DNA of 64,000 nucleotides from Victivallaceae bacterium (GTDB lineage Bacteria; Verrucomicrobiota; Lentisphaeria; Victivallales; Victivallaceae): positions 491 to 64,490 of the forward strand of contig JAQUYX010000001.1 in NCBI GenBank assembly GCA_028691615.1, in the 5' to 3' direction. Under the pieces are notes generated by a model. That model was not told the origin of the DNA. It ran no database searches and saw only the letters and a list, made by a program, of their open reading frames with translations. Within the stretch, counting starts at the first letter, position 1. Each line of letters opens with the position of its first letter. Below, piece by piece: positions 19,637 to 63,505 of the stretch. The position numbers and the translations under genes are program-made.

Positions 19637-19640
19637 AAGC

Positions 19641-19677
19641 GCCGGAAGACTCGACGCGAATTATGTCCAGTGCCGTC
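19641..19677 (+). repeat. 3'-terminal fragment (G) of the 165-nt repeat family
   Basis: GCCGGAAGACtCGACGCGAatTaTGtCcAGTGCCGTC matches the last ~37 nt of copy A (24938-24974). Confidence 0.6.
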
Positions 19678-24400: not shown

Positions 24401-24436
24401 ATGATTCCCCCTCCCGGCGGAAAAAAGGCAAAAAAA

Positions 24437-24513
24437 TGGCGAGAGAGACGGGACTCGAACCCGCAACATCCACCGTGACAGGGTGGTACTCTAACCAATT
24501 GAGCTACTCCCCC
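24437..24513 (-). tRNA. tRNA-Asp (GTC)
   Basis: Cloverleaf folded by hand. Acceptor GGGGGAG/CTCTCTC, anticodon loop CTGTCAC, TPsiC GGTTCGAGTCC, encoded CCA. Confidence 0.95.
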
Positions 24514-24583
24514 GCTTTTCAGCAGGCATGTCTTCGAAAATCTCCGGCGCGGCCATACTCTTGGCTTAAAAAGCTTAAGAAGA

Positions 24584-24660
24584 TGGCGAGAGAGACGGGA
24601 CTCGAACCCGCAACATCCACCGTGACAGGGTGGTACTCTAACCAATTGAGCTACTCCCCC
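24584..24660 (-). tRNA. tRNA-Asp (GTC), identical second copy
   Basis: 77/77 identical to 24437..24513. The two are separated by a 70-nt spacer. Confidence 0.95.
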
Positions 24661-24809
24661 GCGCGATTCGACTTTCTCGACAAGTCCTAAAGATACCTCC
24701 GATTTCCTTTTTTTCAAATCCAAAACCGGAAAAAAGCATTTTTTTTCTGATTTTTCATCAAAATCATATCGTAAAAGGTGGCGGACCGGATATATTATCG
24801 CAGCGAAGA

Positions 24810-24974
24810 GACGGCACTGACAAAAGTCCCGTCGATGGAATCCGGGTGGATCGGAACAGGAGTGGAATGGTGGATTTGAGCGTCGCTACTCGGAGAGTAA
24901 CGACCGAAAAGCCACCGTTTCAGGCCTTTTTCGAGGCACCGGAAGACACGACGCGAGTTTTGCCGAGTGCCGTC
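24810..24974 (+). repeat. 165-nt imperfect-palindrome repeat, copy A (reference copy)
   Basis: Termini GACGGCACT...AGTGCCGTC. Central hairpin GTCGCTACTC-GGA-GAGTAACGAC. The two arms are largely reverse-complementary. Confidence 0.85.
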
Positions 24975-25666: not shown

Positions 25667-25832
25667 GACGGCGCTGGCAAAAGTCCCGTCGATGGCTTCC
25701 GGATGAATCGGGAAAGGCGGTGGAATGGCGGATTTGAGTGTCGCTACTCGGAGAGTAACGACCGAAAAGCCGCCGTTTTCAGGCCGTTTCCGAGACGCCG
25801 GAAGACGCGGCGCGAGTTTGGTCAGGGCCGTC
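25667..25832 (+). repeat. Repeat copy B (166 nt)
   Basis: Full-length homolog of copy A. It overlaps the last 54 nt of gmhB on the opposite strand. Confidence 0.85.
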
Positions 25833-26372
25833 CATTTGAAAAATCAGATCCGTCGCCGCCGCAAGATTGTCAACGACATATTTCGGCGGTTCGGCAAGCT
25901 TGGAGAGCGTCTTTTCGCCGTAACCGGTCCGAACCAGAATGGAGGCGCGGCAATGCGCGCGCTCGCCCGCGGTCAAATCACTGACACGGTCGCCGACCAT
26001 ATAGCTCCGGGAAAGATCGATTCCGTATTTTGCGGCGGCGGCCAGGAGCATACCGGGATTGGGTTTGCGGCATTCGCACGGTCCAGAGAAATCCGGGTGG
26101 TGCGGGCAATAGAAAAAATCGTCAATCCGCGCCCCGGAAGGCGCCAGAAGCTCCCGGATTTTCGCATGAACCAGGGCGATGGCGCTCTCCGGATAAAGCC
26201 CGCGCGCGACCCCGGACTGGTTGGTCACCACAATGACATAAAATCCCATTTCGTTCATCCGCCGGATGGCGGAGCCGACGCCGGCCTCCAGAACAGCTTT
26301 GTCGGGATCGGAGAGATAATCCACTTCACGATTGACCACGCCGTCGCGATCGAGAAAACAGCACTTTTTCAT
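25779..26372 (-). CDS. gmhB: D-glycero-beta-D-manno-heptose-1,7-bisphosphate 7-phosphatase (HAD-IIIA)
   Basis: FLDRDGVVN motif and zinc-binding CPHHP...CECRKP motif. Start moved to MKKCCF. Confidence 0.8.
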   Translation of the reverse strand: MKKCCFLDRDGVVNREVDYLSDPDKAVLEAGVGSAIRRMNEMGFYVIVVTNQSGVARGLYPESAIALVHAKIRELLAPSGARIDDFFYCPHHPDFSGPCECRKPNPGMLLAAAAKYGIDLSRSYMVGDRVSDLTAGERAHCRASILVRTGYGEKTLSKLAEPPKYVVDNLAAATDLIFQMDGPDQTRAASSGVSETA

Positions 26373-26678
26373 CGGGAAAGTTTTGTTCCTTCCTTTTTTT
26401 CCATAATATACTTGATATTTTCCCCTTTGCAATGTATCTTAAAAAACCGATGAATTTTTAATGTATGGATCAGGAAAATGAGTTTCACGTTTTCTCATAT
26501 GTTTCAAGCGGGATTTCTTCCGATGATGTCCGGGGCGGCTCGACTTAGCCGTTCCGGCACTCTGCTGTCCGACTAAACAAGTTCGGACGGTCCCTGCCGG
26601 CGGCTTCCGGACCGTGATTGCCGGACTGATTTCTCCCGTTCCCGATTCCAAATTCAAGAGGAAAGCATTTGTGAAAAA

Positions 26679-40332: not shown

Positions 40333-40417
40333 TGGTGCGCGAGAAGGGGGTCGAACCCTCACTCCGTAAGGAACCGGAACCTAAATCCGGCGCGTCTGCC
40401 AATTCCGCCACCCGCGC
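40333..40417 (-). tRNA. tRNA-Leu (TAG)
   Basis: 85 nt; long variable arm, anticodon loop TTTAGGT, encoded CCA. Folded by hand. Confidence 0.95.
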
Positions 40418-40534: not shown

Positions 40535-40586
40535 GACGGTGCGGACAAAAGTCCCGTCATCAGCAGTCGGAATGATCGAAACAATG
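40535..40586 (+). repeat. 5'-half fragment (E) of the 165-nt repeat family
   Basis: GACGGTGCGGACAAAAGTCCCGTC... matches the first ~50 nt of copies A and D2. The remainder has diverged. Confidence 0.5.
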
Positions 40587-41929: not shown

Positions 41930-42445
41930 AACGGAACGACGAAAATGAAACATAGTCCCGACGATGGATTTCAGATGGATTCGGAAGTGGAACGGAGAAA
42001 CGATTGTGAGGGTGGCTACTCGGAGAGGAACCACCGAAAAAGCAGGCCTTCAAGCCTTTTCCGAGCCGCCGGAAGACGCGCCGCGAGTTTGGGCAATGCC
42101 GTCACTTCAGACGGCACTGTCAAAAGTCCCGACGATGGATTCCGGATGGATCGGGAATGGGATGAAGTTCCTGATTGTGAGGGTGGCTACTCGGAGAGTA
42201 ACCACCGAAAAAGCAGGTCTTCAGGCCTTTTCCGAGCCGCCGGAAGACGCGCCGCGAGTTTGGGCAATGCCGTCACTTCAGACGGCACTGTCAAAAGTCC
42301 CGACGATGGATTCCGGATGGATCGGGAATGGGATGAAGTTCCTGATTGTGAGGGTGGCTACTCGGAGAGTAACCACCGAAAAAGCAGGTCTTCAGGCCTT
42401 TTCCGAGCCGCCGGAAGACGCGCCGCGAGTTTGGGCAATGCCGTC
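41930..42445 (+). repeat. Tandem array of three copies (C1 degenerate at its 5' end; C2=42110..42274; C3=42281..42445) of the 165-nt repeat, period 171 nt
   Basis: C2 and C3 are identical. A 6-nt ACTTCA spacer between copies creates CAATGCCGTC-ACTTCA-GACGGCACTG junction hairpins. Confidence 0.9.
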
Positions 42446-42454
42446 ACTTCACTT

Positions 42455-45400
42455 TTGATCCTTCTACTGCTCCTCGGAGGGCCATCGCTAACCTCCGCCG
42501 AAAATTTTTCGCCTTGGGACGCATGGCGGCAGGGGTATGTCCTGACCGAAAAAGGGCGTACTGCATTCGACAAAGGAGATTACAAAACCGCCCGGGAAAA
42601 TTTCCGGCAGGCGCGGGAGTGCTACACCCAGATCAAGACCGAACGCCCCGATTGGAACCACAAGATCATCGATACGCGAATCTCGATCTGCGATCAGGAA
42701 TTGGCCAAAGTCTCCGGGAAAATCGGGACGGGGGAACCCTCGCCCAAACCAGCCGGAGTCGCCGCGCCAACCAAGCCGTCCGGCAGCGAAGATTTTGATT
42801 CCGACGCATCCGGCGACCTCTATCGACTGCGCAACGAACTGGCCGCGACACGCCGCAAACTGGTCGCCGATTCGGTCGAAATCGAGGAGCTGCGCAAACA
42901 GCTGCGCAACACCAAGGCGACTTCGGCGGAGATGGAAAATCTGCTGCGCGAAAAACTCCTTCTTCAGGAAAAATACGAGCTGCTCGACCGCCGTTTCCGC
43001 GAATTGGAGAAACAGTCCGCCAGTCCCAAGGGAGAATTGCAGCAGGCGCAACGCCAGCTCGACGAGGAGAAGTTGCACTCTTCCGCCGCACGCCGCCAAG
43101 TGCAGGAAGTCCAGCAGCGCCTCGATAAACTCACCGAGGAAAACGCCTCGCTCTACCGGATGCGCAATCAATTGCGCAGCGAGCTGGAAAAAAGCGAAAA
43201 AGAACGCAACGATTTGAAGACTTTGCGCACCAGCGCGGAAAATCTGCGCCGTTCCTTCGACATCGAACTGGCGCGGCTGCGCGACGAAGTGTCCAGTTTG
43301 AAGCGGCTGCAGGATTCTGCGGAAAAAACCGCCTCGACCTTGCGCGAAGAGAACACCAAACTTTACCGTTGGCTCGAAGAGGCCCGCAAGGGCGGCGAAT
43401 CCAGCAGCAAACTCAACACCGAGGCCACCGCGGAAAATAAGCGCCTCCTCGGGGAGCTCGCGCGGCTCACCGCCGAAGTGGAAAAATCCGCCAACGCCAA
43501 AGCCGACGCCATCGCAGAACTCAAACGCCTGCGCGATGAAAACGAATCCTTTCGCTCTTCCACCGCCAGACTTGACGCACGAAACCGCGAATTGGGATCG
43601 GCCGTCCAGCGCCAGACGGAGTTGTTCGACCGGCTGCGTCAGGACGCGCTCAACACCGAGGCCGAACGCAAGAAATTGAGCAATCAACTTGCCGAACGCG
43701 AACGCGAACTCAAGGATTGGATCGACCGCTGCGAGACGCTTAAGAAGCGTCAGCAGACCAGCAGTGAAGCCGAACTTGCCGGAATTTCCGCGGCAAACGA
43801 GGCGCGCCGCCGCCTCGAGCAGGAAGTCTCCGAACTGAAAATCTCGCTCCGGGAAGCACAGATTCGCCACAATCTCTCCACCGACCGGGTGGCCGTGCTG
43901 GAGGCGCAGGAGAAGGAAACCGCAAGTCGGCTGCGAGCGCTTCAGACCACGCAAAAAACGCAGGAGGAAGAGCTCAAACGCCTTCGCCCCGTCCGCAACC
44001 GCGTCCTCGCATTGGAGACAGAAAAGTCCGCGCTGGAACGCAACATCGCCGCATTGAAGAAGGACGCGGCAACAGCCGCCGTAACCGAAAGCGAGCGCAA
44101 TCACCTGCGCGCCGAAAATATCAAGCTTACCGAAGCGAACGCACAGTTGCAGCCCTTGCAGCAAAAAATAGTTGCGGCAGACCGCCTCAACCAGCAGTTG
44201 AGCAACCGGGTCGTTGCACTGGAAAACAAGCACCACCTTGCCACGCAGGAAGCCGTCCGCTTGACGAAAACACTTGCAGAGACCACCAAAGAACTGAATC
44301 TGCAATCCTCCCGTTACAGCGCCGCGATCGCCGACGCCAGAGTGCTGTCGGACAAAGCCCTTGCCAACAGTAAGGCCATGTTGACCGAAGCCACCGAAAA
44401 TTACAACGCACTCCTTCCCAAATACACCGCCGCGACGCAGGAACTTCGCGCCCAATCCGCAGAACTGAAAACCCTCCGGGAGAACGCGGCTCGCGAGAAG
44501 GAGACCATCGCACAAAACACCCGTCTGCGCGAGGAACTTGCCACCCTCTCTCGCCTCCGCGCCGCCGAAAAAGCAGCAGCAGCAGCCGCATCGGAGGCGT
44601 TGAGCAAACAACTTGCCGGGGAGAAGACACTGGCAAACGCCATCGCCGCCCGTCTCAAAGAGGCGGAAAAAGCGCAGAGTTTATTCCGACAGGACTCCCG
44701 CGCACGCCTGGAGAGCGCAACTCAGGCGCGCGCCGCCGCCGAAGCAGCCACTCGCAAGGCGGAGGAACGCATTGCCCTGCTTGAACAGGAGGCGCAGGCC
44801 AATCTCCGGCGCGAGCAGGAATTGACCCGGCAGCTTTCGGAGGAACGCATTCTTCTGGCCAAGGCGCAATCCGCCGCCGCAGCCGAGGATTCCGGCAAGC
44901 GCAATGCCACCGAACGCGAAAAAGCATTCACCGATCGCATCGCACAACTTCAAAAAACCGTCAGCGAAGGAGAACTGCGCGCAAAGGAGCTTTCCACCCG
45001 CCTCGCTCAGGAGAAAGAACTCCGCCAAAAAGCGCAGGCCGCCGCCGCGCAGCACGCCGCGCAGATCGCCCAAAGCAATGCGCAAGCCGCGCAAATCCAG
45101 CGCAACCGCAACGCTTCTCTCGAAGAAGAACTCGCCGCCACCAAAAAAGCGCTCGCCGATGCGAATGCTGCGACCGCAAAGGCGCAAAGCCTCATCGATT
45201 CCGGCAATCACACCGCCAAGGCGAACCGCGATCAACTCGCTTCTCTGACGGGAGCGCTCACCGCAAAAAAACAATCCATCGACGCGCTGCAAAAAGAGAT
45301 CGCTTCGCTGCGCAATAAACTCGCACTCGTCTCGGCTCCGGTGAAAACCGCTCCCGCCCCTGCGCCCGTGGTCGTTCCGGTGCCGAAAAATACCCCCTCC

Positions 45401-46534
45401 GCCGCAGAAATCACCGCGCTCCGGCAGGAGTTGGCCGCCTCCATCGAGCGCGAAAAAGCATTGACGGCAAAACTTTCCGCCGCCGCCATCGTCCGTCCCG
45501 TCGTCCCGAAGAGCGCTCCCCTTCCGGCGCCTTCCATTTTGCCTGCCCCGTCGATTCCTCCGGCAGCGCAGGATGTCGATTTTTCCAGCTATCTGGCCGG
45601 CGGCAGGAAAGCACTTGCGGAAGGCAACGAGGATCTCGCCGTCTGGAATTTCCGGAAAACACTCGAAATCGATCCGGGCAATTTCGAGGCAAATTGTCTT
45701 TTGGGCAAACTCTACCTCGCACGCGACCAGTTTCCCGAAAGCGCGGCGGCATTGCAAAAAGCCTGCGTCGCCGCACCGGACAATCCGGAGAGCGCCGCGC
45801 TCTACGCCGAAGCACTGCTCGCACAAAACAAGCCGGGCAACGCCCTTGAAATTGTGGAAAAATTCGCCAAGACAAAAAATCCCGCCCCCGCGATTCTTTT
45901 GACTTACGGACGGGCGCTGACCGGCGCCGACCGCGGCGCCGACGCCGTGACGGTTCTGGAACAATTCACCGCAGCACAACAAAAATCCGCCCCCGGGGCC
46001 CTCGCGCTTGCGTCGGCGCTGGCCAAAGCCGGTCGCGACAAGGATGCCGCCGCCGCCTACCACCGGGCCAGAAAACTCGGCGCCGCCCCGGACGCCCGTC
46101 TGGAAGAGCTGACGAAAAAGTCCGGTCAGACGACCGCGGACGAACAAATGCTGCAATTCCTTCGGGAAACCGCCGCCGAAGCGGAAAAATCCGGCGATTA
46201 CGCCTCCGCTCTCTGGTATCAGCTGGAGATCGGCAAATATCGCGGCAGTCCGGAGAATAAACGCAGCATCGGCGCATTGATGGCGCTCTCCGGCGACGGT
46301 GACGGCGCCTTCGCATTGGCCAAGACGCTTCCCGCAGGTACAGATCGGGAGGTGATCTCCGGCATGGGCGCATTTGCCAAGGGCGATTTCGAGGCGGCGC
46401 AAAACCATATGCGCAAGGCCGCCTCCGGGCGCATTGATCCGGCCGTGCTCGCCCGGCTCGCAAAACAGATCTCCGGCAAACAGGACGATCGTGCCGCACA
46501 AGCAATCGCCGCCGCTCGAAAGCTGCTGAAATGA
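42455..46534 (+). CDS. Giant coiled-coil protein with an N-terminal hydrophobic signal/anchor, an N-terminal TPR-like module and a C-terminal TPR domain. Start uncertain; alternatives are the ATG at 41945 or ATGs inside the repeats.
   Basis: ~1000 aa of uninterrupted A/E/L/K/R/Q-rich heptad-like sequence. LLILLLLLGGPSLTSA hydrophobic segment, Pro-rich linkers, and TPR-like C-terminus (EIDPGNFEANCLLGKLYL...). The first in-frame ATG downstream of the repeats is ~330 codons in, so I propose the TTG at 42455. Confidence 0.7.
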   Translation: MILLLLLGGPSLTSAENFSPWDAWRQGYVLTEKGRTAFDKGDYKTARENFRQARECYTQIKTERPDWNHKIIDTRISICDQELAKVSGKIGTGEPSPKPAGVAAPTKPSGSEDFDSDASGDLYRLRNELAATRRKLVADSVEIEELRKQLRNTKATSAEMENLLREKLLLQEKYELLDRRFRELEKQSASPKGELQQAQRQLDEEKLHSSAARRQVQEVQQRLDKLTEENASLYRMRNQLRSELEKSEKERNDLKTLRTSAENLRRSFDIELARLRDEVSSLKRLQDSAEKTASTLREENTKLYRWLEEARKGGESSSKLNTEATAENKRLLGELARLTAEVEKSANAKADAIAELKRLRDENESFRSSTARLDARNRELGSAVQRQTELFDRLRQDALNTEAERKKLSNQLAERERELKDWIDRCETLKKRQQTSSEAELAGISAANEARRRLEQEVSELKISLREAQIRHNLSTDRVAVLEAQEKETASRLRALQTTQKTQEEELKRLRPVRNRVLALETEKSALERNIAALKKDAATAAVTESERNHLRAENIKLTEANAQLQPLQQKIVAADRLNQQLSNRVVALENKHHLATQEAVRLTKTLAETTKELNLQSSRYSAAIADARVLSDKALANSKAMLTEATENYNALLPKYTAATQELRAQSAELKTLRENAAREKETIAQNTRLREELATLSRLRAAEKAAAAAASEALSKQLAGEKTLANAIAARLKEAEKAQSLFRQDSRARLESATQARAAAEAATRKAEERIALLEQEAQANLRREQELTRQLSEERILLAKAQSAAAAEDSGKRNATEREKAFTDRIAQLQKTVSEGELRAKELSTRLAQEKELRQKAQAAAAQHAAQIAQSNAQAAQIQRNRNASLEEELAATKKALADANAATAKAQSLIDSGNHTAKANRDQLASLTGALTAKKQSIDALQKEIASLRNKLALVSAPVKTAPAPAPVVVPVPKNTPSAAEITALRQELAASIEREKALTAKLSAAAIVRPVVPKSAPLPAPSILPAPSIPPAAQDVDFSSYLAGGRKALAEGNEDLAVWNFRKTLEIDPGNFEANCLLGKLYLARDQFPESAAALQKACVAAPDNPESAALYAEALLAQNKPGNALEIVEKFAKTKNPAPAILLTYGRALTGADRGADAVTVLEQFTAAQQKSAPGALALASALAKAGRDKDAAAAYHRARKLGAAPDARLEELTKKSGQTTADEQMLQFLRETAAEAEKSGDYASALWYQLEIGKYRGSPENKRSIGALMALSGDGDGAFALAKTLPAGTDREVISGMGAFAKGDFEAAQNHMRKAASGRIDPAVLARLAKQISGKQDDRAAQAIAAARKLLK

Positions 46535-51482: not shown

Positions 51483-51521
51483 GGGGAAATCTGCGCCAAC
51501 GCGGATTTCCCCGTTTTTTTT
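51483..51521 (+). terminator. Rho-independent terminator after fusA2
   Basis: GGGGAAATCtGCG-ccaa-CGCgGATTTCCCC followed by T8. Confidence 0.8.
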
Positions 51522-51735
51522 GAGACGGAAGAGATGACGCAAGTTTTGTCGCGGCCATCTTCTACAAATATTTTACATTTAGATCGTTCCAAATTCAAGA
51601 CAGAGGATTTCAAGGCTTGATTTTTTTCTCTGCGGTGATAATTTTATCATCAAAACATCCTCCGCGGCAAAAGGCGGGGATTCGCAGGTCTTTTCCGGGA
51701 TGCCCACCACCCGAGTCGCAACACAGGAGAAAAAA

Positions 51736-53659: not shown

Positions 53660-53682
53660 CTTAAAATTTTTCTCCGGTTGCG

Positions 53683-53792
53683 ATGGAGGATTTGAGCAAA
53701 AGCGACTGGGCAAGTTCCGCCCCGAAAAGCCACCGTTTCAGGCCTTTTTCGAGCCGCCGGAAAACACAACGCGAACTTTTCCGAGTGCCGTC
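53683..53792 (+). repeat. Repeat copy D1 (5'-truncated, central hairpin diverged)
   Basis: The 3' ~75 nt align with other copies and end in GAGTGCCGTC. Confidence 0.7.
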
Positions 53793-53798
53793 CACAGA

Positions 53799-53962
53799 GA
53801 CGGTGCTGACAAAGATCCCGTCGATGGATTCCGGATGGATCGAGAAAGGAATGGAATGGTGGGTTTGAGCGTCGCTACTCGGAGAGTAACGACCGAAAAG
53901 CCACCGTTTCAAGCCTTTTTCGAGCCGCCGGAAAACACAACGCGAACTTTGTCAGCACCGTC
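53799..53962 (+). repeat. Repeat copy D2 (164 nt, perfect 12-bp terminal inverted repeat)
   Basis: GACGGTGCTGAC...GTCAGCACCGTC. Central hairpin identical to copy A. Confidence 0.85.
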
Positions 53963-54012: not shown

Positions 54013-54041
54013 TTGCAAAACACCCGAAGAACGGATATATT
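54013..54041 (+). promoter_or_regulatory. Sigma-70-type promoter TTGCAA-N17-TATATT upstream of apgM
   Basis: Hexamers and 17-nt spacing read directly. ~40 nt upstream of the GTG at 54080. Confidence 0.45.
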
Positions 54042-54079
54042 ATCGATAAAAAAAACATCCATCAAGATTGGGGAAAACC

Positions 54080-56349: not shown

Positions 56350-56423
56350 TGGCAGCCCCGTAAGGATTCGAACCTCAACAAAATGAACCAGAATCACTTG
56401 TGCTACCATTACACCACGGGGCT
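56350..56423 (-). tRNA. tRNA-Gln (CTG)
   Basis: 74 nt; acceptor AGCCCCG/CGGGGCT, anticodon loop TTCTGGT, encoded CCA. Folded by hand. Confidence 0.95.
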
Positions 56424-56562: not shown

Positions 56563-56627
56563 CCGACCTGAAAATCGGAGGGAAACGGACAACGGAAGAC
56601 TTGAAGCGAGTTTTGCCGAGTGCCGTC
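56563..56627 (+). repeat. 3'-half fragment (F) of the 165-nt repeat family
   Basis: ...CGGAAGACttGAaGCGAGTTTTGCCGAGTGCCGTC is almost identical to the 3' end of copy A. Confidence 0.6.
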
Positions 56628-57634: not shown

Positions 57635-60600
57635 ATGACATCCCGACTTTTTTTTCTGCTGCTGCTTGCAATCCTTCCGGCGCTCAACGCGCTGGAAATC
57701 AGAAAAAATCTCAATCAAACCGTCTTCCCTTATGATCCGCGCAATGTCACAATCAAAAGCGACCGCAAGCTGGTCGAAAACCGGACGCTCGAATACCACA
57801 GCAACCGCAGCGGACGGCTGCTCAAGCTGGTTCCCGGCGTCAGCAATTTCACCCAGACTTTGACCGCCGCCGCCGATGTGCCGATCCCTCCGGGCACGCT
57901 GCGCCTCAAATTCGACGTCAAGGTCGAAGGCGTCGGACCGGCCGATCTCTCGGCAATCTTCTCCGGAACCAACGAAAAGCAGGAGATCATCGTCCCGGTG
58001 ATCCGGTTGACCGCGTCCCCCTGGCGAACCTATTACTGCGAAGTGCCTGCGAACGCCCGGAAATTCCGGGGCATTGGCCTCAAACTTCCCGGCAGAACCA
58101 ACGCGGAATACAGTTTCGGGCTGGTCGAATTCGACTCCGCCGTCCGCGACGGCAAAAATTTCTGGACGCTGCGCGATCTGGACGAGTCCGCGGATCACCT
58201 TCAACAGTTCAGCGGACACAGAGTGGATGTTCAAGGTTCCGACAAGGACAACGCATTGCCGCTGCGTTACTTCTTCGACCGCCCGAACGTGGCGAAAATC
58301 GTCGGAATCCTTTACGACGGGAAGCGCAAAACGCTGGCCAATTTCACGTTGGACGCGCGCGAAATCGGCGATATCCGCCAATATGACCTGTTGCTGCCGC
58401 AACTGCCCGCGGGACATTATTGGATCGAACTGAATCGTTTTGACGGCAATCGGCATTTCGTCGACAACCGCCTGCACTCCTACTGGATCGCATTCTCGCC
58501 GGTTCCCAAAGCGCCGCTGCCGCTGCTGACGACATTTTCCCGGATCGCGCCGCACTCGGCACGACCGTCAACCACGGTTTCCGAAGGCAGCAAATATTTC
58601 ATTGTATCGGCCGACAAGCTGGCCGAGGGAGAGCGTCTGGAAGGGTTTTGGCGCTCCCCGGAAGGCAAAATTTTCCCCGCCGAAATCACGCAATACAATC
58701 TGGTGAAAAACCCGCCCGTTGTCATCCGCCCCGCCGTGTGGAAACTGACCTTGCGTTTGCTGCGCGGAACAGAAATTCTCGACGGACGCACCCTCGAAAT
58801 CTATTTTTCCGGCATAACCAACCGGATCGAAGACAAAAAAGAAAATGCACCGCCGCGACCCGTCGGCGCCTTCCCGCTCGTGTTCCACGAAAAAATCAGT
58901 GTACAGCAGCCGGGGCAGAAGACCGCCGCCGGGAAATGGATCGCCGGTTCCGGCAACGCAGTCTGGAGCAGCGCCTTCCGCTGGGGAGAGCTGGAACCGC
59001 TCGAAGGAAGAATTCAATATCCGCTGATCGACTCCCGGCTTGCAGAGGCGCGGGAAACGGGAACCCCGTTCGAATTGAGCTGGTATTTCAACGGCGATCA
59101 GCTCCCGAAATTTCTCTGGTATGACGCGCTGCTCGACAATCAACAGAAGTTCACCACACGCCGCTTCAGCCCCGGCAGCGAGAGAATCAGCTCCGCCGTC
59201 GCCCGGACCGTGCGCGCCCTCGTGCTGAAATACCGTTCCAATCCCAGCATCCGCAGCTGGAATTTCTCCAGCGGCGTCCGCGACGCTTGGAACGATGACG
59301 CCCCGCGCGGACGCATTGGCGGATTCGATCCATCCAGCATCGCCGCATTTCGGAGCTATCTGGAAAAGAATCCGGACGCCGCAAAAGAGTACGCCGCACC
59401 GTCAGCCACAGCGATGCCGCCAGTCATTGATTTCCAATCCGGGAACGCGCCGGGCAAGGAAATTCTCATTTGGAGCCGATTCCGAAAGCAGCTGCTTTTG
59501 GGGTATTACGAAACACTGTTCGAAGCGGTTCGCTCCACAGACAAATTCCGCCCGATCGTCCAACGGCTGGACAATGGCGGCGGAAGCCCGGCGGAACTCT
59601 TGGAACTTTTCCGCAAATACAATGTGACAGTGGAACTGACTGGCGGCGAAAACCAGTTATCCATCCCGATGCAGTCGCTGGCATGGCAGTACGCAGTGCC
59701 CGTGCGCCTGACCGCGACGCCGGGCATTCTGCCGCACAGAGCCTTGCTGGAACTGCTCTTCTTCAAACAGCTGGCCATCGGCGGAACACGCGGCGGAATC
59801 AGCATCGATCTCGGATTCGACCACCCGGTTCCGCCGGACGGCAAAGCCGAACATGGCAGAGATCTGGAAAGGCAAAAGCAGTTGGAGGTTTTCCGCCATG
59901 CCGCACAGTTGGCCGGACACCTCTCCTCGCTTGATCTGGGCGCGCCGGTGGCTTCGCCGGTGGCGGCCGGACTTGGTTCGCTCAGTCTGCGGCTGGCGGG
60001 ACGCTCGACCAATTGGGAAAATTTTGCCGAGCGCAACGTCAACGGGTTCCACGATTTGATCGCACTGGCCTCCGAACGGGGCAATGCACTGCCGTTCGTG
60101 ACCGAATCGGCGGCGCCGGAGATTCTCGACCGTTATCGGACAATCGTATTCCATCCGTCGCCGGATATCGCCAATGCCGATGCGCTGAAACTCGCAGGCT
60201 ATGTCAAGCGCGGCGGGAAACTGATTCTCTTCGGCGATTTCGCCATCCGCGACGAAAAAGGAATGCCGTCGAACACCTTCCACGCGCTGACCGCCGCTCC
60301 GCGCAAAGAAGGGGAAACCGCCTATGGCAAGGGCAAAATTGTCGTGCTTCCGGCGACCGCCGATTTCCGCCGGGAGGCGGGAAAGCAGCTGGAACTGGCG
60401 GGATTGCGTCCGCCCGCGGTCTCCGAAGATGAGCGCGTGCTCACCGGATTCCGGCGCAACCACGCGGGCAAAGGATATCTGATTTTGTACGGGAAAAACT
60501 GGGTGGGCGTCAATCCAACGCAGGAAGAGGTCGGCGCCGGGAAACTGCGCGCCCGAATCAAAGTGCAATCTCAATTCGCCCCGAAAACCCGCTGCAAGCT

Positions 60601-60760
60601 CCGCGACGTGACCGACCCGAAACGGACTCGGGAACTTCCGGACGCGACCGCCGAAGAGCTGGCCGCCGGAATCTTGCTGGACGTCGACTGCGGAGCGCTG
60701 CGAATTCTCGAGATCACGCCGGAAGAGCCGGCGCAAGTTTTGGCAGCGCCGTCAAAATAA
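57635..60760 (+). CDS. Large secreted putative glycoside hydrolase (GH42-like TIM barrel plus a trimerisation/GATase-like domain, with a long N-terminal extension)
   Basis: Signal peptide (LFFLLLLAILPALNA). Central WGELEPLEGRIQYPLIDSRL resembles the GH42/GH35-type barrel start. C-terminal IVFHPSPD...GGKLILFGDF resembles the GH42 middle domain. Confidence 0.45.
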   Translation: MTSRLFFLLLLAILPALNALEIRKNLNQTVFPYDPRNVTIKSDRKLVENRTLEYHSNRSGRLLKLVPGVSNFTQTLTAAADVPIPPGTLRLKFDVKVEGVGPADLSAIFSGTNEKQEIIVPVIRLTASPWRTYYCEVPANARKFRGIGLKLPGRTNAEYSFGLVEFDSAVRDGKNFWTLRDLDESADHLQQFSGHRVDVQGSDKDNALPLRYFFDRPNVAKIVGILYDGKRKTLANFTLDAREIGDIRQYDLLLPQLPAGHYWIELNRFDGNRHFVDNRLHSYWIAFSPVPKAPLPLLTTFSRIAPHSARPSTTVSEGSKYFIVSADKLAEGERLEGFWRSPEGKIFPAEITQYNLVKNPPVVIRPAVWKLTLRLLRGTEILDGRTLEIYFSGITNRIEDKKENAPPRPVGAFPLVFHEKISVQQPGQKTAAGKWIAGSGNAVWSSAFRWGELEPLEGRIQYPLIDSRLAEARETGTPFELSWYFNGDQLPKFLWYDALLDNQQKFTTRRFSPGSERISSAVARTVRALVLKYRSNPSIRSWNFSSGVRDAWNDDAPRGRIGGFDPSSIAAFRSYLEKNPDAAKEYAAPSATAMPPVIDFQSGNAPGKEILIWSRFRKQLLLGYYETLFEAVRSTDKFRPIVQRLDNGGGSPAELLELFRKYNVTVELTGGENQLSIPMQSLAWQYAVPVRLTATPGILPHRALLELLFFKQLAIGGTRGGISIDLGFDHPVPPDGKAEHGRDLERQKQLEVFRHAAQLAGHLSSLDLGAPVASPVAAGLGSLSLRLAGRSTNWENFAERNVNGFHDLIALASERGNALPFVTESAAPEILDRYRTIVFHPSPDIANADALKLAGYVKRGGKLILFGDFAIRDEKGMPSNTFHALTAAPRKEGETAYGKGKIVVLPATADFRREAGKQLELAGLRPPAVSEDERVLTGFRRNHAGKGYLILYGKNWVGVNPTQEEVGAGKLRARIKVQSQFAPKTRCKLRDVTDPKRTRELPDATAEELAAGILLDVDCGALRILEITPEEPAQVLAAPSK

Positions 60761-60860
60761 AAAAGATCCCGCGCTTGACAAATGATATTCCCGATGTATA
60801 TTACCGATATACTCCCTCTCGAAAACAGCTTTTCCAAGGATTGTTCTTTCCCTTCGGATT

Positions 60861-61427
60861 ATGATTTTCGGCATCACAGGATCATTCGGAAGCGGCAAAA
60901 GCGAATTGACGCGCTTCTTCCGGGAAAAAGGGTTTCCGGTATTCAGCAGCGACAGTTTCTGTTCGTGTCTGCTGGATTCCCGGGAAATTGCCGCAAAGGC
61001 GGCAGAACGCTGGGGTTCTGGGATCTTCGCTTCGGAAAATATTCTGGATCGAAAAAAGATTGCCGCAATTATTTTTTCCGATGAAAAAGAACGGAAATTC
61101 TGGGAGGAGCTTTTTCACCGGCCGTTGCGCGAAAAACTCGTTCAACTCGCCGGCGAGTATCGTGACTCAATTCTTTTCGCGGAGATTCCGCTCCTCTATG
61201 AAGCTGGTATGGAGAAGTACTGCGATCGTGTGATCGTCGTTTCGGTCTCCGACGATGTTCGGACCGCCCGACTCGCCGCAAGGGGATTCGCCCCCGCGGA
61301 AGTCGCCGCCCGTCTGCAAAGTCAGATGCCGGACGAAGAAAAATGCAAAAAAGCGGATTTCGTGATTTTCAACAATGGAACCATAGCCCTCCTGAAACAA
61401 CAGGCGGAGCTGATTTTGAAACAGTAA
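60861..61427 (+). CDS. coaE: Dephospho-CoA kinase
   Basis: [12 protein letters not shown]-loop; 188 aa. Confidence 0.9.
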
Positions 61428-61432
61428 GCAGG

Positions 61433-63505
61433 ATGACACACATGGACGAAGAAAAAAATTTCGGAGCCCCCGCCAACGGCGAGGGCAATCCGCAGCAGCA
61501 GGACGGAAAACCACAGGAAAAAAGGCAGAGCTTCTTCTTCCGCCGCCCCCGTGGACGCAACCGCAACAGCGAACCAGAAGCCATTCCCGCCGATCTGCCG
61601 AAGTCCGATCCCAGAGATGATTTCTATCCCGGCAAACTGCCTTTGCCGCCGCAGGAGAATCCCCCTGCCGCACGCAACCCGCGTGACGAATCCGCCCCCC
61701 AGAGCTCAAGGGGAAACGACAACAACGCTTCCGCCACACAAAATCCCCCGCGCCGCCGGGGTCGTCCGCGCAAGGACAACAGCAATTCCCCCAACGGCAA
61801 CGTCGCCGCCACTCCCGGTACGGGCAATTCCTCCAACAACAACAATCCCCGCTTCTCCCGCGACCGCGCCGAAAACGACGACCGCCGGAAATTCAATTAC
61901 AACAACCGCCGCCGCGACCGTCGCGACGACCGGACCGAAGAGGAGCTGCCCCTTTATCCCGATTACGAGGCCGTGCGCAATGCCTCCGCGGAATCCGCAG
62001 CACAAGCCGGAGATCCCGCAGATTCCATCATGAAGGAGCTGGTTTCCGAAGAGATGCGCGACAGCAACCTCGCTCCCGCCTCGCAGGACATTCCTGTGAT
62101 GGTCGGCTCGGTAAACCTCGATGACGACGAGGAAGTCGCAGCTCCCGCACCCAAACCGCGCCGGATCGAAGGACTCCCCTCCGACGAGGATATCGACCGG
62201 GAACTCAAGCCGCGGCGTCGCGATGTCGCCCGCGACCCGATCGCCCCGAACCTCAATATCTCCGAACTTCAGGCGAAATCCATGCAGGAACTCTCCCAGA
62301 TCGCGGAGAGTTTCGGAATCGAAGGAATCGGCGCGCTGGAGAAATCCAAGCTGCTCTTTGAAATCCTCCGCGCCAACGCCGAACGCTTCGGTCAGATGTA
62401 CGGCAGCGGATATCTTGAAGTGATGCCGGACGGGTTCGGATTTCTGCGTTCCGCGGCATACAGCTATCTGCCTTCGCCCGAAGACGTTTATTTAAGCCCC
62501 TCGCAGATCAAGCGCTTCGCACTCAAAACCGGAGACTACGTCACCGGCCAGATCCGCAATCCCCGGGAGAAGGAACGCTTCTTCGCCATGCTCAAGGTGG
62601 AGACGATCAACAACGAATCCCCCGAACGCAAGAAAGAGATCATTCCCTTTCAGAATCTCACCCCGTATTTCCCGACCCAGCGCCTCGTGCTGGAGCGCGC
62701 GCCCAACGAAATGTCAAGCCGCGTGGTCGATCTGGTCACCCCCATCGGCAAGGGACAGCGCGGCCTCATCGTGGCTCCGCCGCGAACAGGCAAAACCGTG
62801 CTCCTTCAGGAGATGGCCAATCATATCCGCACCAACAATCCGGAAGTCAAGCTGATCATCCTCCTGATCGACGAACGTCCCGAGGAAGTCACCGACATGC
62901 AGCGTTCCGTCGACGCCGAAGTGGTCAGTTCCACCTTCGACGAGCCACCGGAGCGCCACGTCCAAGTGGCCGAGATGGTCATTGAGAAGGCCAAGCGTCT
63001 GGTCGAATACAAGCACGATGTGGTTATCCTGCTCGACAGTATCACACGGCTGGCGCGCGCCTACAACACCTTGCAGCCGCACTCCGGCAAAGTCCTCACC
63101 GGCGGTGTGGACGCCAACGCCCTTCACAAGCCCAAACGCTTCTTCGGCGCCGCGCGCAATATCGAAAATCACGGCAGTCTGACGATCATCGCCACCGCCC
63201 TGATCGATACCGGCAGCCGCATGGACGACGTGATCTTTGAAGAGTTCAAGGGAACCGGCAATATGGAACTGCATTTGGACCGCACCCTCGCGGACAAGCG
63301 GATCTATCCGGCCATCAATATCGAGCGCTCCGGCACCCGCAAGGAGGAGCTGCTGCTCCATCCCGAGGAACTGCAACGCGTCTGGACGCTGCGCAAAGCC
63401 ATGTCCGGGGTGCAGCCGACCGAAGCGATGGAACTGCTCATCGGGCGGTTGAAAAAGGTCAAGACCAACATTGAGTTCCTGCTCACGCTTCAGCAGAACG
63501 CATAG
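61433..63505 (+). CDS. rho: Transcription termination factor Rho with a ~270-aa low-complexity N-terminal extension
   Basis: Rho_N ([23 protein letters not shown]), CSD-like RNA-binding domain, Walker A (PPRTGKT), RecA-like ATPase. Start ATG 61433 or 61442. Confidence 0.9.

Follow-up and report, generated by a model that had tools for sequence, protein, structure and literature searches.

Repeat copies within the window

The window analysed here, a 64 kb stretch of a Victivallaceae metagenome-assembled genome (MAG), holds ordinary housekeeping genes (47 predicted proteins) and copies of a hairpin repeat of approximately 165 nt. An nhmmer search with a profile built from the copies resulted in a census of five full-length and two degenerate copies plus five end fragments, distributed over nine loci (Table 1). 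Full copies A, B, C2, C3 and D2 were matched at E-values from 1e-49 to 7e-54, and a separate repeat search of the window also recovered the family. The body of the full copies is 164-166 bp long, non-coding and without a transposase gene of its own, and divergence among the window copies is 13-25%. All ten copies and fragments listed in the original prediction were recovered by nhmmer, with boundaries identical or shifted by a few bases, but two end fragments (60705-60753 and 51497-51558) had been missed. Rfam annotation of the window returned only four tRNAs at the gathering threshold, and copy A in E-value mode gave only noise (E >= 1.5), upholding the earlier view of a genuine repeat family with no Rfam match in either mode.

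The single orientation that had been reported was true of every independent nhmmer match, with 9/9 loci in the 64 kb window on the + strand (approximately p = 0.004 under random orientation); minus-strand matches merely mirrored the + copies. The central hairpin motif TACTCGGAGAGTA, scanned across the window with up to two mismatches, was likewise matched six times, all on the + strand, against 0.32 matches expected. The GC skew of the window is flat, such that the direction of replication cannot be inferred from it. The 3' end is kept and the 5' end is absent in five of the six solo fragments and in D1, and no partner TIR lies within 300 nt of any solo fragment, as would be expected of a short form with an internal deletion.

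Table 1. Repeat copies, fragments, spacers and associated open frame in the 64 kb window.
Feature	Position	Strand	Evidence and context
Fragment G, 3' end only	19637..19677	+	nhmmer model 126-165, E 6e-6
Copy A, full length (165 nt)	24810..24974	+	nhmmer E 3e-50; fold -84.6 kcal/mol, z -7.8; tRNA-Asp pair (-) on one side, DUF308 gene (+) on the other; flanks CGAAGA / CAGAGA, 4/6 match, decayed TSD
Copy B, full length (166 nt)	25667..25832	+	nhmmer E 9e-50; 3' of DUF308 gene; fold -91.3 (+ strand) vs -66.7 (- strand) kcal/mol
Fragment E, 5' end only	40535..40583	+	nhmmer 40535-40581, model 1-47, E 0.016; 72% over 53 nt; 118 nt upstream of tRNA-Leu
Copy C1, first array unit, degenerate 5' end	41930..42103	+	nhmmer 41950-42103, model 13-165, E 1e-46; 7 A·C mismatches; holds ATG (41945) of long ORF
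Open frame of 170 codons across C1-C3	41945..42454	+	in frame with TPR protein ORF 41945-46534
Spacer ACTTCA, 6 nt, TSD copy	42104..42109	+	recurs at 42275-42280 and 42446-42451
Copy C2, full length (165 nt)	42110..42274	+	nhmmer E 7e-54
Copy C3, full length	42281..42445	+	nhmmer score and fold equal to C2; 171-nt units 98% identical; followed by ACTTCA, then signal-peptide hydrophobic core
3'-end fragment, weak, borderline	51497..51558	+	nhmmer E 8e-3 (window profile), 0.5 (family profile); directly 3' of terminator-like hairpin behind EF-G gene
Copy D1, 5'-truncated, unit 1 of two-unit array	53679..53792	+	nhmmer model 55-165, E 1e-17
Spacer CACAGA, 6 nt, D1/D2 junction	53793..53798	+	period 171
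Copy D2, full length (164 nt)	53799..53962	+	best-paired copy, -98.0 kcal/mol
Fragment F, 3' end only	56590..56627	+	nhmmer model 129-165, E 1e-3; 89% over 38 nt; 167 nt upstream of tRNA-Gln
3'-end fragment	60705..60753	+	nhmmer E 5e-5; encodes last ~17 codons of ORF 57635-60760

Copies in the source genome and in related lineages

At least two more contigs of the source MAG, those encoding the proteins P0001 and P0122, were found to carry copies by an exhaustive HMMER search and a word-seeded search, both using element translations. P0001, P0122 and the HflX protein of the window share the locus-tag prefix PHS41 (MAG protein accessions MDD3153257, MDD3154955 and MDD3155409). P0122 is a tandem array with a 57-aa period at a contig end, and P0001, a recC protein, was the sole match of a six-frame concatenated peptide query. 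A profile of the element peptides then matched 14 small ORFs, 12 of them new and from other metagenomes; these 12 represent a sister subfamily, most of them with distinct flanking sequence. Sister DNA was obtained for seven copies at six loci (L004-L010, with L006 and L007 being one locus sampled twice), in gene neighbourhoods typical of PVC bacteria. The sister copies are likewise 165 nt long and are approximately 64% identical to those of the window.

The HflX of the window is 100% identical to a protein encoded on a 74.9-kb contig of a Victivallaceae MAG, whereas the next HflX in rank is only 61% identical, indicating that the lineage is barely sampled. An exact pattern for the central hairpin had no match in a genome collection of 185,579 species, the lineage falling outside the species representatives, and a 3'-arm pattern gave one chance match in JGI metagenomes, within a response-regulator gene. 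The TIR pattern was absent from viral contigs, and blastn against plasmids and phages returned no matches. Short Logan contigs of run SRR22315505 that carry window-protein sequences end at or near repeats. A full-text literature search on MITEs in Lentisphaerota yielded nothing relevant. The family, one of a well-known kind of element, is undescribed and is found in Victivallaceae and related PVC bacteria.

Termini, target-site duplications and mobility

The ends GACGG...CCGTC and the invariant central hairpin described in the original prediction are present in the sequences, and the window copies have imperfect TIRs of about 9-26 bp (GACGGCACT... / ...AGTGCCGTC). In the sister copies L004b, L006 and L009 the TIR GGCGGCAGTGCCAAAA / TTTTGGCACTGCCGCC is perfect at 16/16 positions. 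Copy L006 has the arrangement AAGAAA-GGCGGCAGTGCCAAAA...TTTTGGCACTGCCGCC-AAGAAA, i.e. a perfect 6-bp target-site duplication (TSD) that is also seen in L007 at the same locus, and TCTCAA stands on both sides of L009, a further perfect 6-bp TSD. The bodies of L006 and L009 are identical (165/165) and their flanking genes are unrelated, which is indicative of recent transposition of the sister subfamily. At L004 the order is AGGATG-copy-ATGATG-copy-ATGATG, with a flank match of 5/6, and in the C array ACTTCA lies behind each of the three units. The flanks of the single window copies match at 4/6 (A), 0/6 (B) and 3/6 (D2) positions, which is consistent with, but not proof of, the age implied by their 13-25% divergence. 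No conserved motif is apparent among the left flanks CGAAGA, TCCAAA, ACTTCA, CACAGA, AAGAAA and TCTCAA.

TIRs together with a fixed TSD are the hallmark of a classical MITE, which is cut and pasted by a transposase making staggered cuts. Since the TIRs and 6-bp TSDs are perfect in young copies and identical copies occur at different loci, the family is best classed as a MITE and not as an IS200/IS605- or REP-type element; we put the probability that the repeat is a small non-autonomous transposon of this kind, duplicating six bases at its landing site, at roughly 0.8. The defining traits of bacterial MITEs are small size, TIRs, TSDs, many dispersed copies and a stable stem-loop (PMC10969869, PMC2229807), and the present family has a size below 500 bp, TIRs, a TSD, dispersed mobile copies and a stable stem-loop. 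The element would be moved in trans by a transposase encoded elsewhere, possibly of the DDE type, whose cuts with a 6-bp stagger would leave each insertion flanked by a 6-bp TSD. TSDs of about 6 bp are given by IS481, IS1634 and some IS21 members, and the element termini have no obvious match to these.

As originally stated, the window lacks a transposase: a Pfam scan of its 47 predicted proteins found no such domain. Neither the window nor loci L004-L010 contained a full-length IS with the same TIRs, and the resolvase island adjoining the L005 copy had no obvious transposase ORF. Some observations count against the MITE reading. A transposon with TIRs and TSDs is expected to occur in either orientation, yet all nine window loci lie on the + strand. 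No autonomous partner with matching ends (GRCGGCASTGNCAAAAGTCCCG) was found in the DNA searched, and the transposase is one that we infer only.

The original prediction had pointed towards IS200/IS605-derived PATE, REP/RAYT and TnpB elements, a lead that the TIRs and 6-bp TSDs do not support. A single-strand DNA element like IS200/IS605-PATE or REPIN/RAYT, whose top-strand hairpin would be excised and inserted at the replication fork by a Y1 (HUH) enzyme, would account for the placement of all nine loci on one strand as well as for strand-specific folding; it would also fit the better fold of the top strand, the tolerance of G·U/G·T in it (see below) and the maintenance of pairing along the whole rod, as in REPINs (PMC3116915). 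However, Y1 transposition leaves no TSD, whereas young copies are bounded by perfect 6-bp TSDs of differing sequence, and the ends are true TIRs and not subterminal hairpins. Further, there is no conserved tetra- or pentanucleotide 5' of the element, neither a GTAG nor a CGTC tag is kept (GCCGCC forms the end of the sister subfamily), and the window contains no Y1 or RAYT gene, making this type of mobility improbable.

Still less probable is retro-mobilization in the manner of a SINE, in which the hairpin RNA would be copied at staggered nicks to give both TSDs and 5'-truncated copies. TSDs are present, the strand-specific fold would support an RNA stage, and the solo fragments and D1 mostly retain the 3' end without the 5' end (5/6 fragments, and D1). 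However, the 5:1 ratio among fragments is not significant, the window encodes no reverse transcriptase, and perfect 16-bp TIRs are the kind of end to which a transposase binds. In addition, the TSD has the same length, 6 bp, wherever it is informative; a fixed length is typical of transposases, but not of target-primed reverse transcription.

The 171-nt unit and its residence within genes

Under the MITE reading, the main point of note is that the element and its duplication (165 + 6 = 171 nt) together amount to 57 codons, which makes it possible for the element to reside in frame inside genes that it would leave unbroken. All three DNA-level tandem arrays, i.e. C, D and L004, have a period of 171; this constant period and the TSDs were absent from the original prediction. 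The units of one array share subfamily-specific substitutions, and this, together with a period of element plus TSD, suggests local duplication between TSD copies rather than repeated insertion. Unequal recombination or slippage between two TSD copies would produce such arrays and their 171-bp period. In all three arrays the decayed unit is the 5'-most one.

The top strand has one open frame in every full copy, and this frame combined with a length of 57 codons explains the in-frame insertion seen in recC and, probably, that of the C array in the TPR ORF (see below). In P0001, a partial RecC, 55 element-encoded residues (DDTDKSP...ASFGSVV) stand in frame between ...AIVQL and QLEDLERIL.... The insert sits at the start of the RecC C-terminal domain; directly behind it the Pfam RecC_C match resumes, as does the alignment to residues 830-1013 of E. 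coli RecC. The dipeptide QL occurs on both sides of the insert, indicating a 6-nt duplication in recC at the protein level.

Contrary to the claim that all copies are intergenic or at the edges of intergenic DNA, ORF 41945-46534 contains the C array in frame, and copy B and fragment 60705-60753 form the 3' ends of ORFs. ORF 41945-46534 has 1529 codons and TPR matches in Pfam; in translation, its N-terminus is MKH followed by 167 element-encoded residues and then LLILLLLLGGPSLTSA and ENF, such that the MKH start and the hydrophobic core of the signal peptide are split by three in-frame units. From this arrangement, the C array is probably the result of an insertion, and then a local duplication, inside the signal-peptide coding region of the TPR protein. 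Alternatively, the 5' end of C1 may just have diverged, with a 9-nt insertion in the nhmmer alignment, and translation of the TPR ORF could start at either ATG 41945 or a downstream TTG. There are only two intragenic cases so far, recC and, probably, the TPR signal peptide; in both, an in-frame insertion within a conserved protein gene resembles those of RPE, in behaviour and not by homology.

At the 3' ends of genes, the HAD hydrolase ORF 25779-26432(-) takes its last ~18 codons and stop from copy B, with the Pfam HAD match ending at residue 193 of 217. Fragment 60705-60753 contains the end of ORF 57635-60760, and the first unit of the L004 array contains the end of a gene. The element can donate C-terminal codons to genes in this way.

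A protein-coding repeat module of 57 residues, with the nucleotide palindrome incidental, would account for the open frame in every full copy, for the 171-nt period of 57 codons and for the in-frame reading in recC and at the N-terminus of the TPR ORF. However, indels place the 3' half of the element in three different frames (A/D2, B and C), copies of the L004b type carry a stop codon in the loop (TACTCGTAGAGTA), most copies are intergenic, and substitutions track base-pairing rather than codons. The frame-shifting indels between A, B and C that had been described earlier are real and, with substitutions that follow pairing, they bear out the proposal that conservation is at the nucleotide or structure level and not at the protein level. 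As a general explanation the protein module is refuted by the frame shifts, and we consider it extremely improbable overall.

Structure, covariation and strand preference

The intact copies fold as one long imperfect hairpin of -79 to -98 kcal/mol (-81 to -98 kcal/mol for those of the window), in agreement with the original prediction; for copy A (-84.6 kcal/mol) z = -7.84 and 0/200 shuffles were as good. The three compensatory changes reported among the window copies, in the terminal stem, at the base of the central hairpin and in the outer stem, were all found, and the case for compensatory pairing is strengthened by the sister copies from other genomes. To measure covariation, nine copies from both subfamilies were aligned with MAFFT, the alignment not being fitted to any structure, and RNAalifold gave a single rod of 60 pairs. 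Standard pairs occupy 92.6% of cells, compared with 81.4 +/- 1.0% for shuffled partners and 36-48% when the partners are slid by 1-3 columns. Double changes occur in 26/60 pairs, compared with 15.4 +/- 2.1 in shuffles and 2-8 in the slid controls, a count of pairs and not of independent substitutions, as many double changes are single between-clade events. Twenty of the 26 double-changed pairs are in three internal helices, outside the terminal helix, and the central hairpin also covaries, from TACTC/GAGTA in the window to TACTT/AAGTA in L006. As judged from this alignment, about a third of each arm has changed without loss of complementarity between the arms.

In every intact copy of both subfamilies, folding of the + strand is 7-25 kcal/mol more favourable than that of its complement. 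Cells with G·U outnumber those with A·C by 30 to 5 in the intact copies, compared with 10 to 14 in the decayed copies C1 and L004a (Fisher p = 6e-4), which have the same orientation and locus as their intact neighbours; when each distinct position is counted once, G·U exceeds A·C by just 11 to 5 (p = 0.21). A strand preference of pairing, with G·U tolerated in the top strand only, is thus likely from the comparison of copies, but not proven. In 8/9 copies two G·U pairs have been retained, which argues against arm-to-arm mismatch correction as the source of the apparent compensation. A rod maintained over its full length, beyond the TIRs, by compensation and by top-strand G·U suggests a single-stranded stage in the life of the element, most simply a co-transcribed RNA.

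Transcription context and possible RNA-level role

Where the gene context is co-directional, 6/6 copies are in the sense direction (C, 51497, 60705, L004, L006 and L009); divergent sites are uninformative. A sense RNA co-transcribed with its neighbours would form a hairpin of ~80 bp, and such a long duplex may be cut by RNase III-type enzymes, block exonucleases or stabilize upstream mRNA, effects of a kind documented for Correia and ERIC elements (PMC2229807). However, D2 and D1 would be transcribed in antisense from a promoter-like site lying to the right of D2, such that sense RNA cannot hold for every copy. Promoter-like sites were also seen at other copies: A lies downstream of one, and D2, L005, L006 and L009 lie upstream, with the complement of the 5' TIR of copy A supplying the -35 TTGTCA of a 10/12 promoter-like site. 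No intrinsic terminator was found in the element, as there is no U-tract behind the hairpin. A general function as outward promoter or terminator was considered and rejected, the promoter-like sites being isolated.

Strong covariation, conserved G·U pairs and the sense direction of 6/6 copies in co-directional contexts are also what would be expected of structured non-coding RNA genes, or of cis-regulatory RNA modules, that had spread by duplication rather than transposition. However, the flanks have no conserved promoter or terminator, the positions of the promoter-like sites differ, and there is no Rfam match. Copies in recC and at the ends of ORFs are implausible as RNA genes, and the TSDs and identical copies at unrelated loci show transposition, leaving this origin with little likelihood. 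The main explanation leaves room for a MITE that acts at the RNA level, which would be no separate entity.

A more speculative reading, which we regard as unlikely, is that the element departs from ordinary double-strand cut-and-paste MITEs and that its top strand acts as an 80-bp rod, either as the transposition substrate or as an RNA cofactor, in an insertion process coupled to replication or transcription that leaves a fixed 6-bp TSD. In a milder form, the sense hairpin would be a module for mRNA processing or stability that has been co-opted by the host. If true, coupled insertion of the top-strand rod would explain the uniform orientation, and host use of the sense-strand hairpin would keep the rod under selection. 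We know of no described prokaryotic transposition pathway that joins a strand-specific rod substrate, uniform orientation and a fixed 6-bp TSD.

Comparison with known elements and significance

In behaviour the family is closest to RPE, YPAL/ERIC and Correia elements, with no relationship to them in sequence, none being expected for RPE; the original prediction was right to liken it to ERIC and Correia elements. As a class, rod-shaped MITEs that have open frames and fuse in frame with genes have already been described (PMC2229807, PMC10969869). Like the Victivallaceae family, RPE (105-150 bp) is palindromic, with TIRs, a long stem-loop, an open frame and repeated in-frame insertion in conserved genes (PMC2229807, PMC10969869). 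However, RPE belongs to the Alphaproteobacteria and its TSD is entered as '?' in Table 1 of PMC2229807, whereas the present family belongs to the Lentisphaerota and has a demonstrable 6-bp TSD.

YPAL/RU-2 (168 bp) has a contiguous 56-aa frame and contributes to signal peptides, and ERIC/IRU (127 bp) is co-transcribed with its flanking genes and influences mRNA stability according to its orientation (PMC2229807). Both are similar to the Victivallaceae family in these respects and in having long hairpins and TSDs (PMC2229807), but YPAL and ERIC have short 7-bp TIRs, many of them with TA termini, whereas the Victivallaceae family, known from sequence alone, has a perfect 16-bp TIR and a variable 6-bp TSD. 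Correia/NEMIS elements of Neisseria (~107-155 bp) are comparable in their 24-26 bp TIRs and TSDs; RNase III cuts their hairpin transcripts, and promoters can be created by their ends (PMC2229807). They differ in duplicating TA, in having an IHF site, in occurring in both orientations and in their unrelated sequence. REPINs are similar in being hairpin-forming, ~100 nt long and non-autonomous, with pairing kept within genomes (PMC3116915), but they have no TSD and are mobilized by a Y1 enzyme (RAYT), whereas the present family has TIRs and a 6-bp TSD.

These results have practical consequences for genomes of this lineage, in which the repeats explain the breakage of MAGs into contigs, and for annotation, as copies create spurious small ORFs and false N- or C-terminal extensions. 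A rod with strand-specific wobble, kept between subfamilies that are only ~64% identical, provides a clean data set with which to ask why the interiors of MITEs remain palindromic. The family is also a second clear case, this one from outside Rickettsia, of a palindromic element whose length permits in-frame persistence in conserved genes, and it adds a well-defined MITE family, with TIRs, a 6-bp TSD and a 171-nt insertion unit, to the Lentisphaerota and the Victivallaceae.

Element copies at tRNA loci and a candidate promoter

The window's three tRNA loci are all on the minus strand. Upstream of each, at a distance of 118-167 nt from the 5' end of the tRNA, lies an element copy or remnant oriented away from the tRNA. 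With ~9 occupied sites among the roughly 50 intergenic regions of the window, such an association is unlikely to have arisen by chance (~0.006); one possible explanation is that the element preferentially targets DNA upstream of highly expressed genes. The tRNA-Asp(GTC) gene is itself a tandem duplicate (24411-24662), with a 105-nt repeat unit at 90% identity and a spacing of 147 nt.

A sigma-70-like promoter (10/12 match) is predicted at the 5' end of element copy A, directed towards the tRNA-Asp genes. Its -35 box, TTGTCA, lies within the complement of the 5' inverted repeat of copy A, and its TG-GATAAT lies in the flank, outside the element; a possible reading is that insertion of copy A created a hybrid promoter. 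A promoter-like motif, in the forms GGATATATTATCG and GTATATTATC, also recurs upstream of genes in the window genome and in related metagenome contigs, often 17 nt downstream of TTGAAT or TTGACA, and is probably the extended -10 element of this lineage.

Features of the window and of related contigs carrying sister-subfamily copies
Feature	Location	Strand	Detail
Tandem tRNA-Asp pair	window 24437-24660	-	element copy at 24810
tRNA-Leu	window 40333-40417	-	element remnant at 40535
tRNA-Gln	window 56350-56423	-	element remnant at 56590
Sigma-70-like site	window 24794-24823	-	predicted
Promoter-like motif	window 24788-24800, 54033-54045, ~60810-60822
Promoter-like motif	L005 ~10158, L006 ~10210, L009 ~1600
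Internal repeats, DUF308 membrane protein gene	window 25126-25530		gene between copies A and B
Rho termination factor gene	window 61343-63505		720 aa
Region adjoining sister-subfamily copy	L005 5300-9200		serine recombinase (Resolvase) gene, small ORFs

Neighbouring genes

The DUF308 gene contains three internal 33-nt repeats, at spacings of 201 and 171 nt, which correspond to the repeats of the DUF308 domain and not to the element. The Rho factor carries an N-terminal extension of ~300 residues ahead of its Rho_N domain. The L005 region, which holds several small ORFs with no Pfam hit on record and ~1.5 kb free of called genes, may represent a small mobile island that has no connection with the MITE.

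Assembly breaks at the element

In assemblies of the window organism, breaks fall at the element or close to it, as seen in Logan contigs L002 and L003 (both of run SRR22315505) and at P0001 and P0122, partial proteins at the ends of two MAG contigs that terminate within element copies; L003 terminates within the tandem C array. Because of these breaks, the copy number counted in the MAG is probably an underestimate, and the MITE is probably a partial cause of the fragmentation of this MAG.
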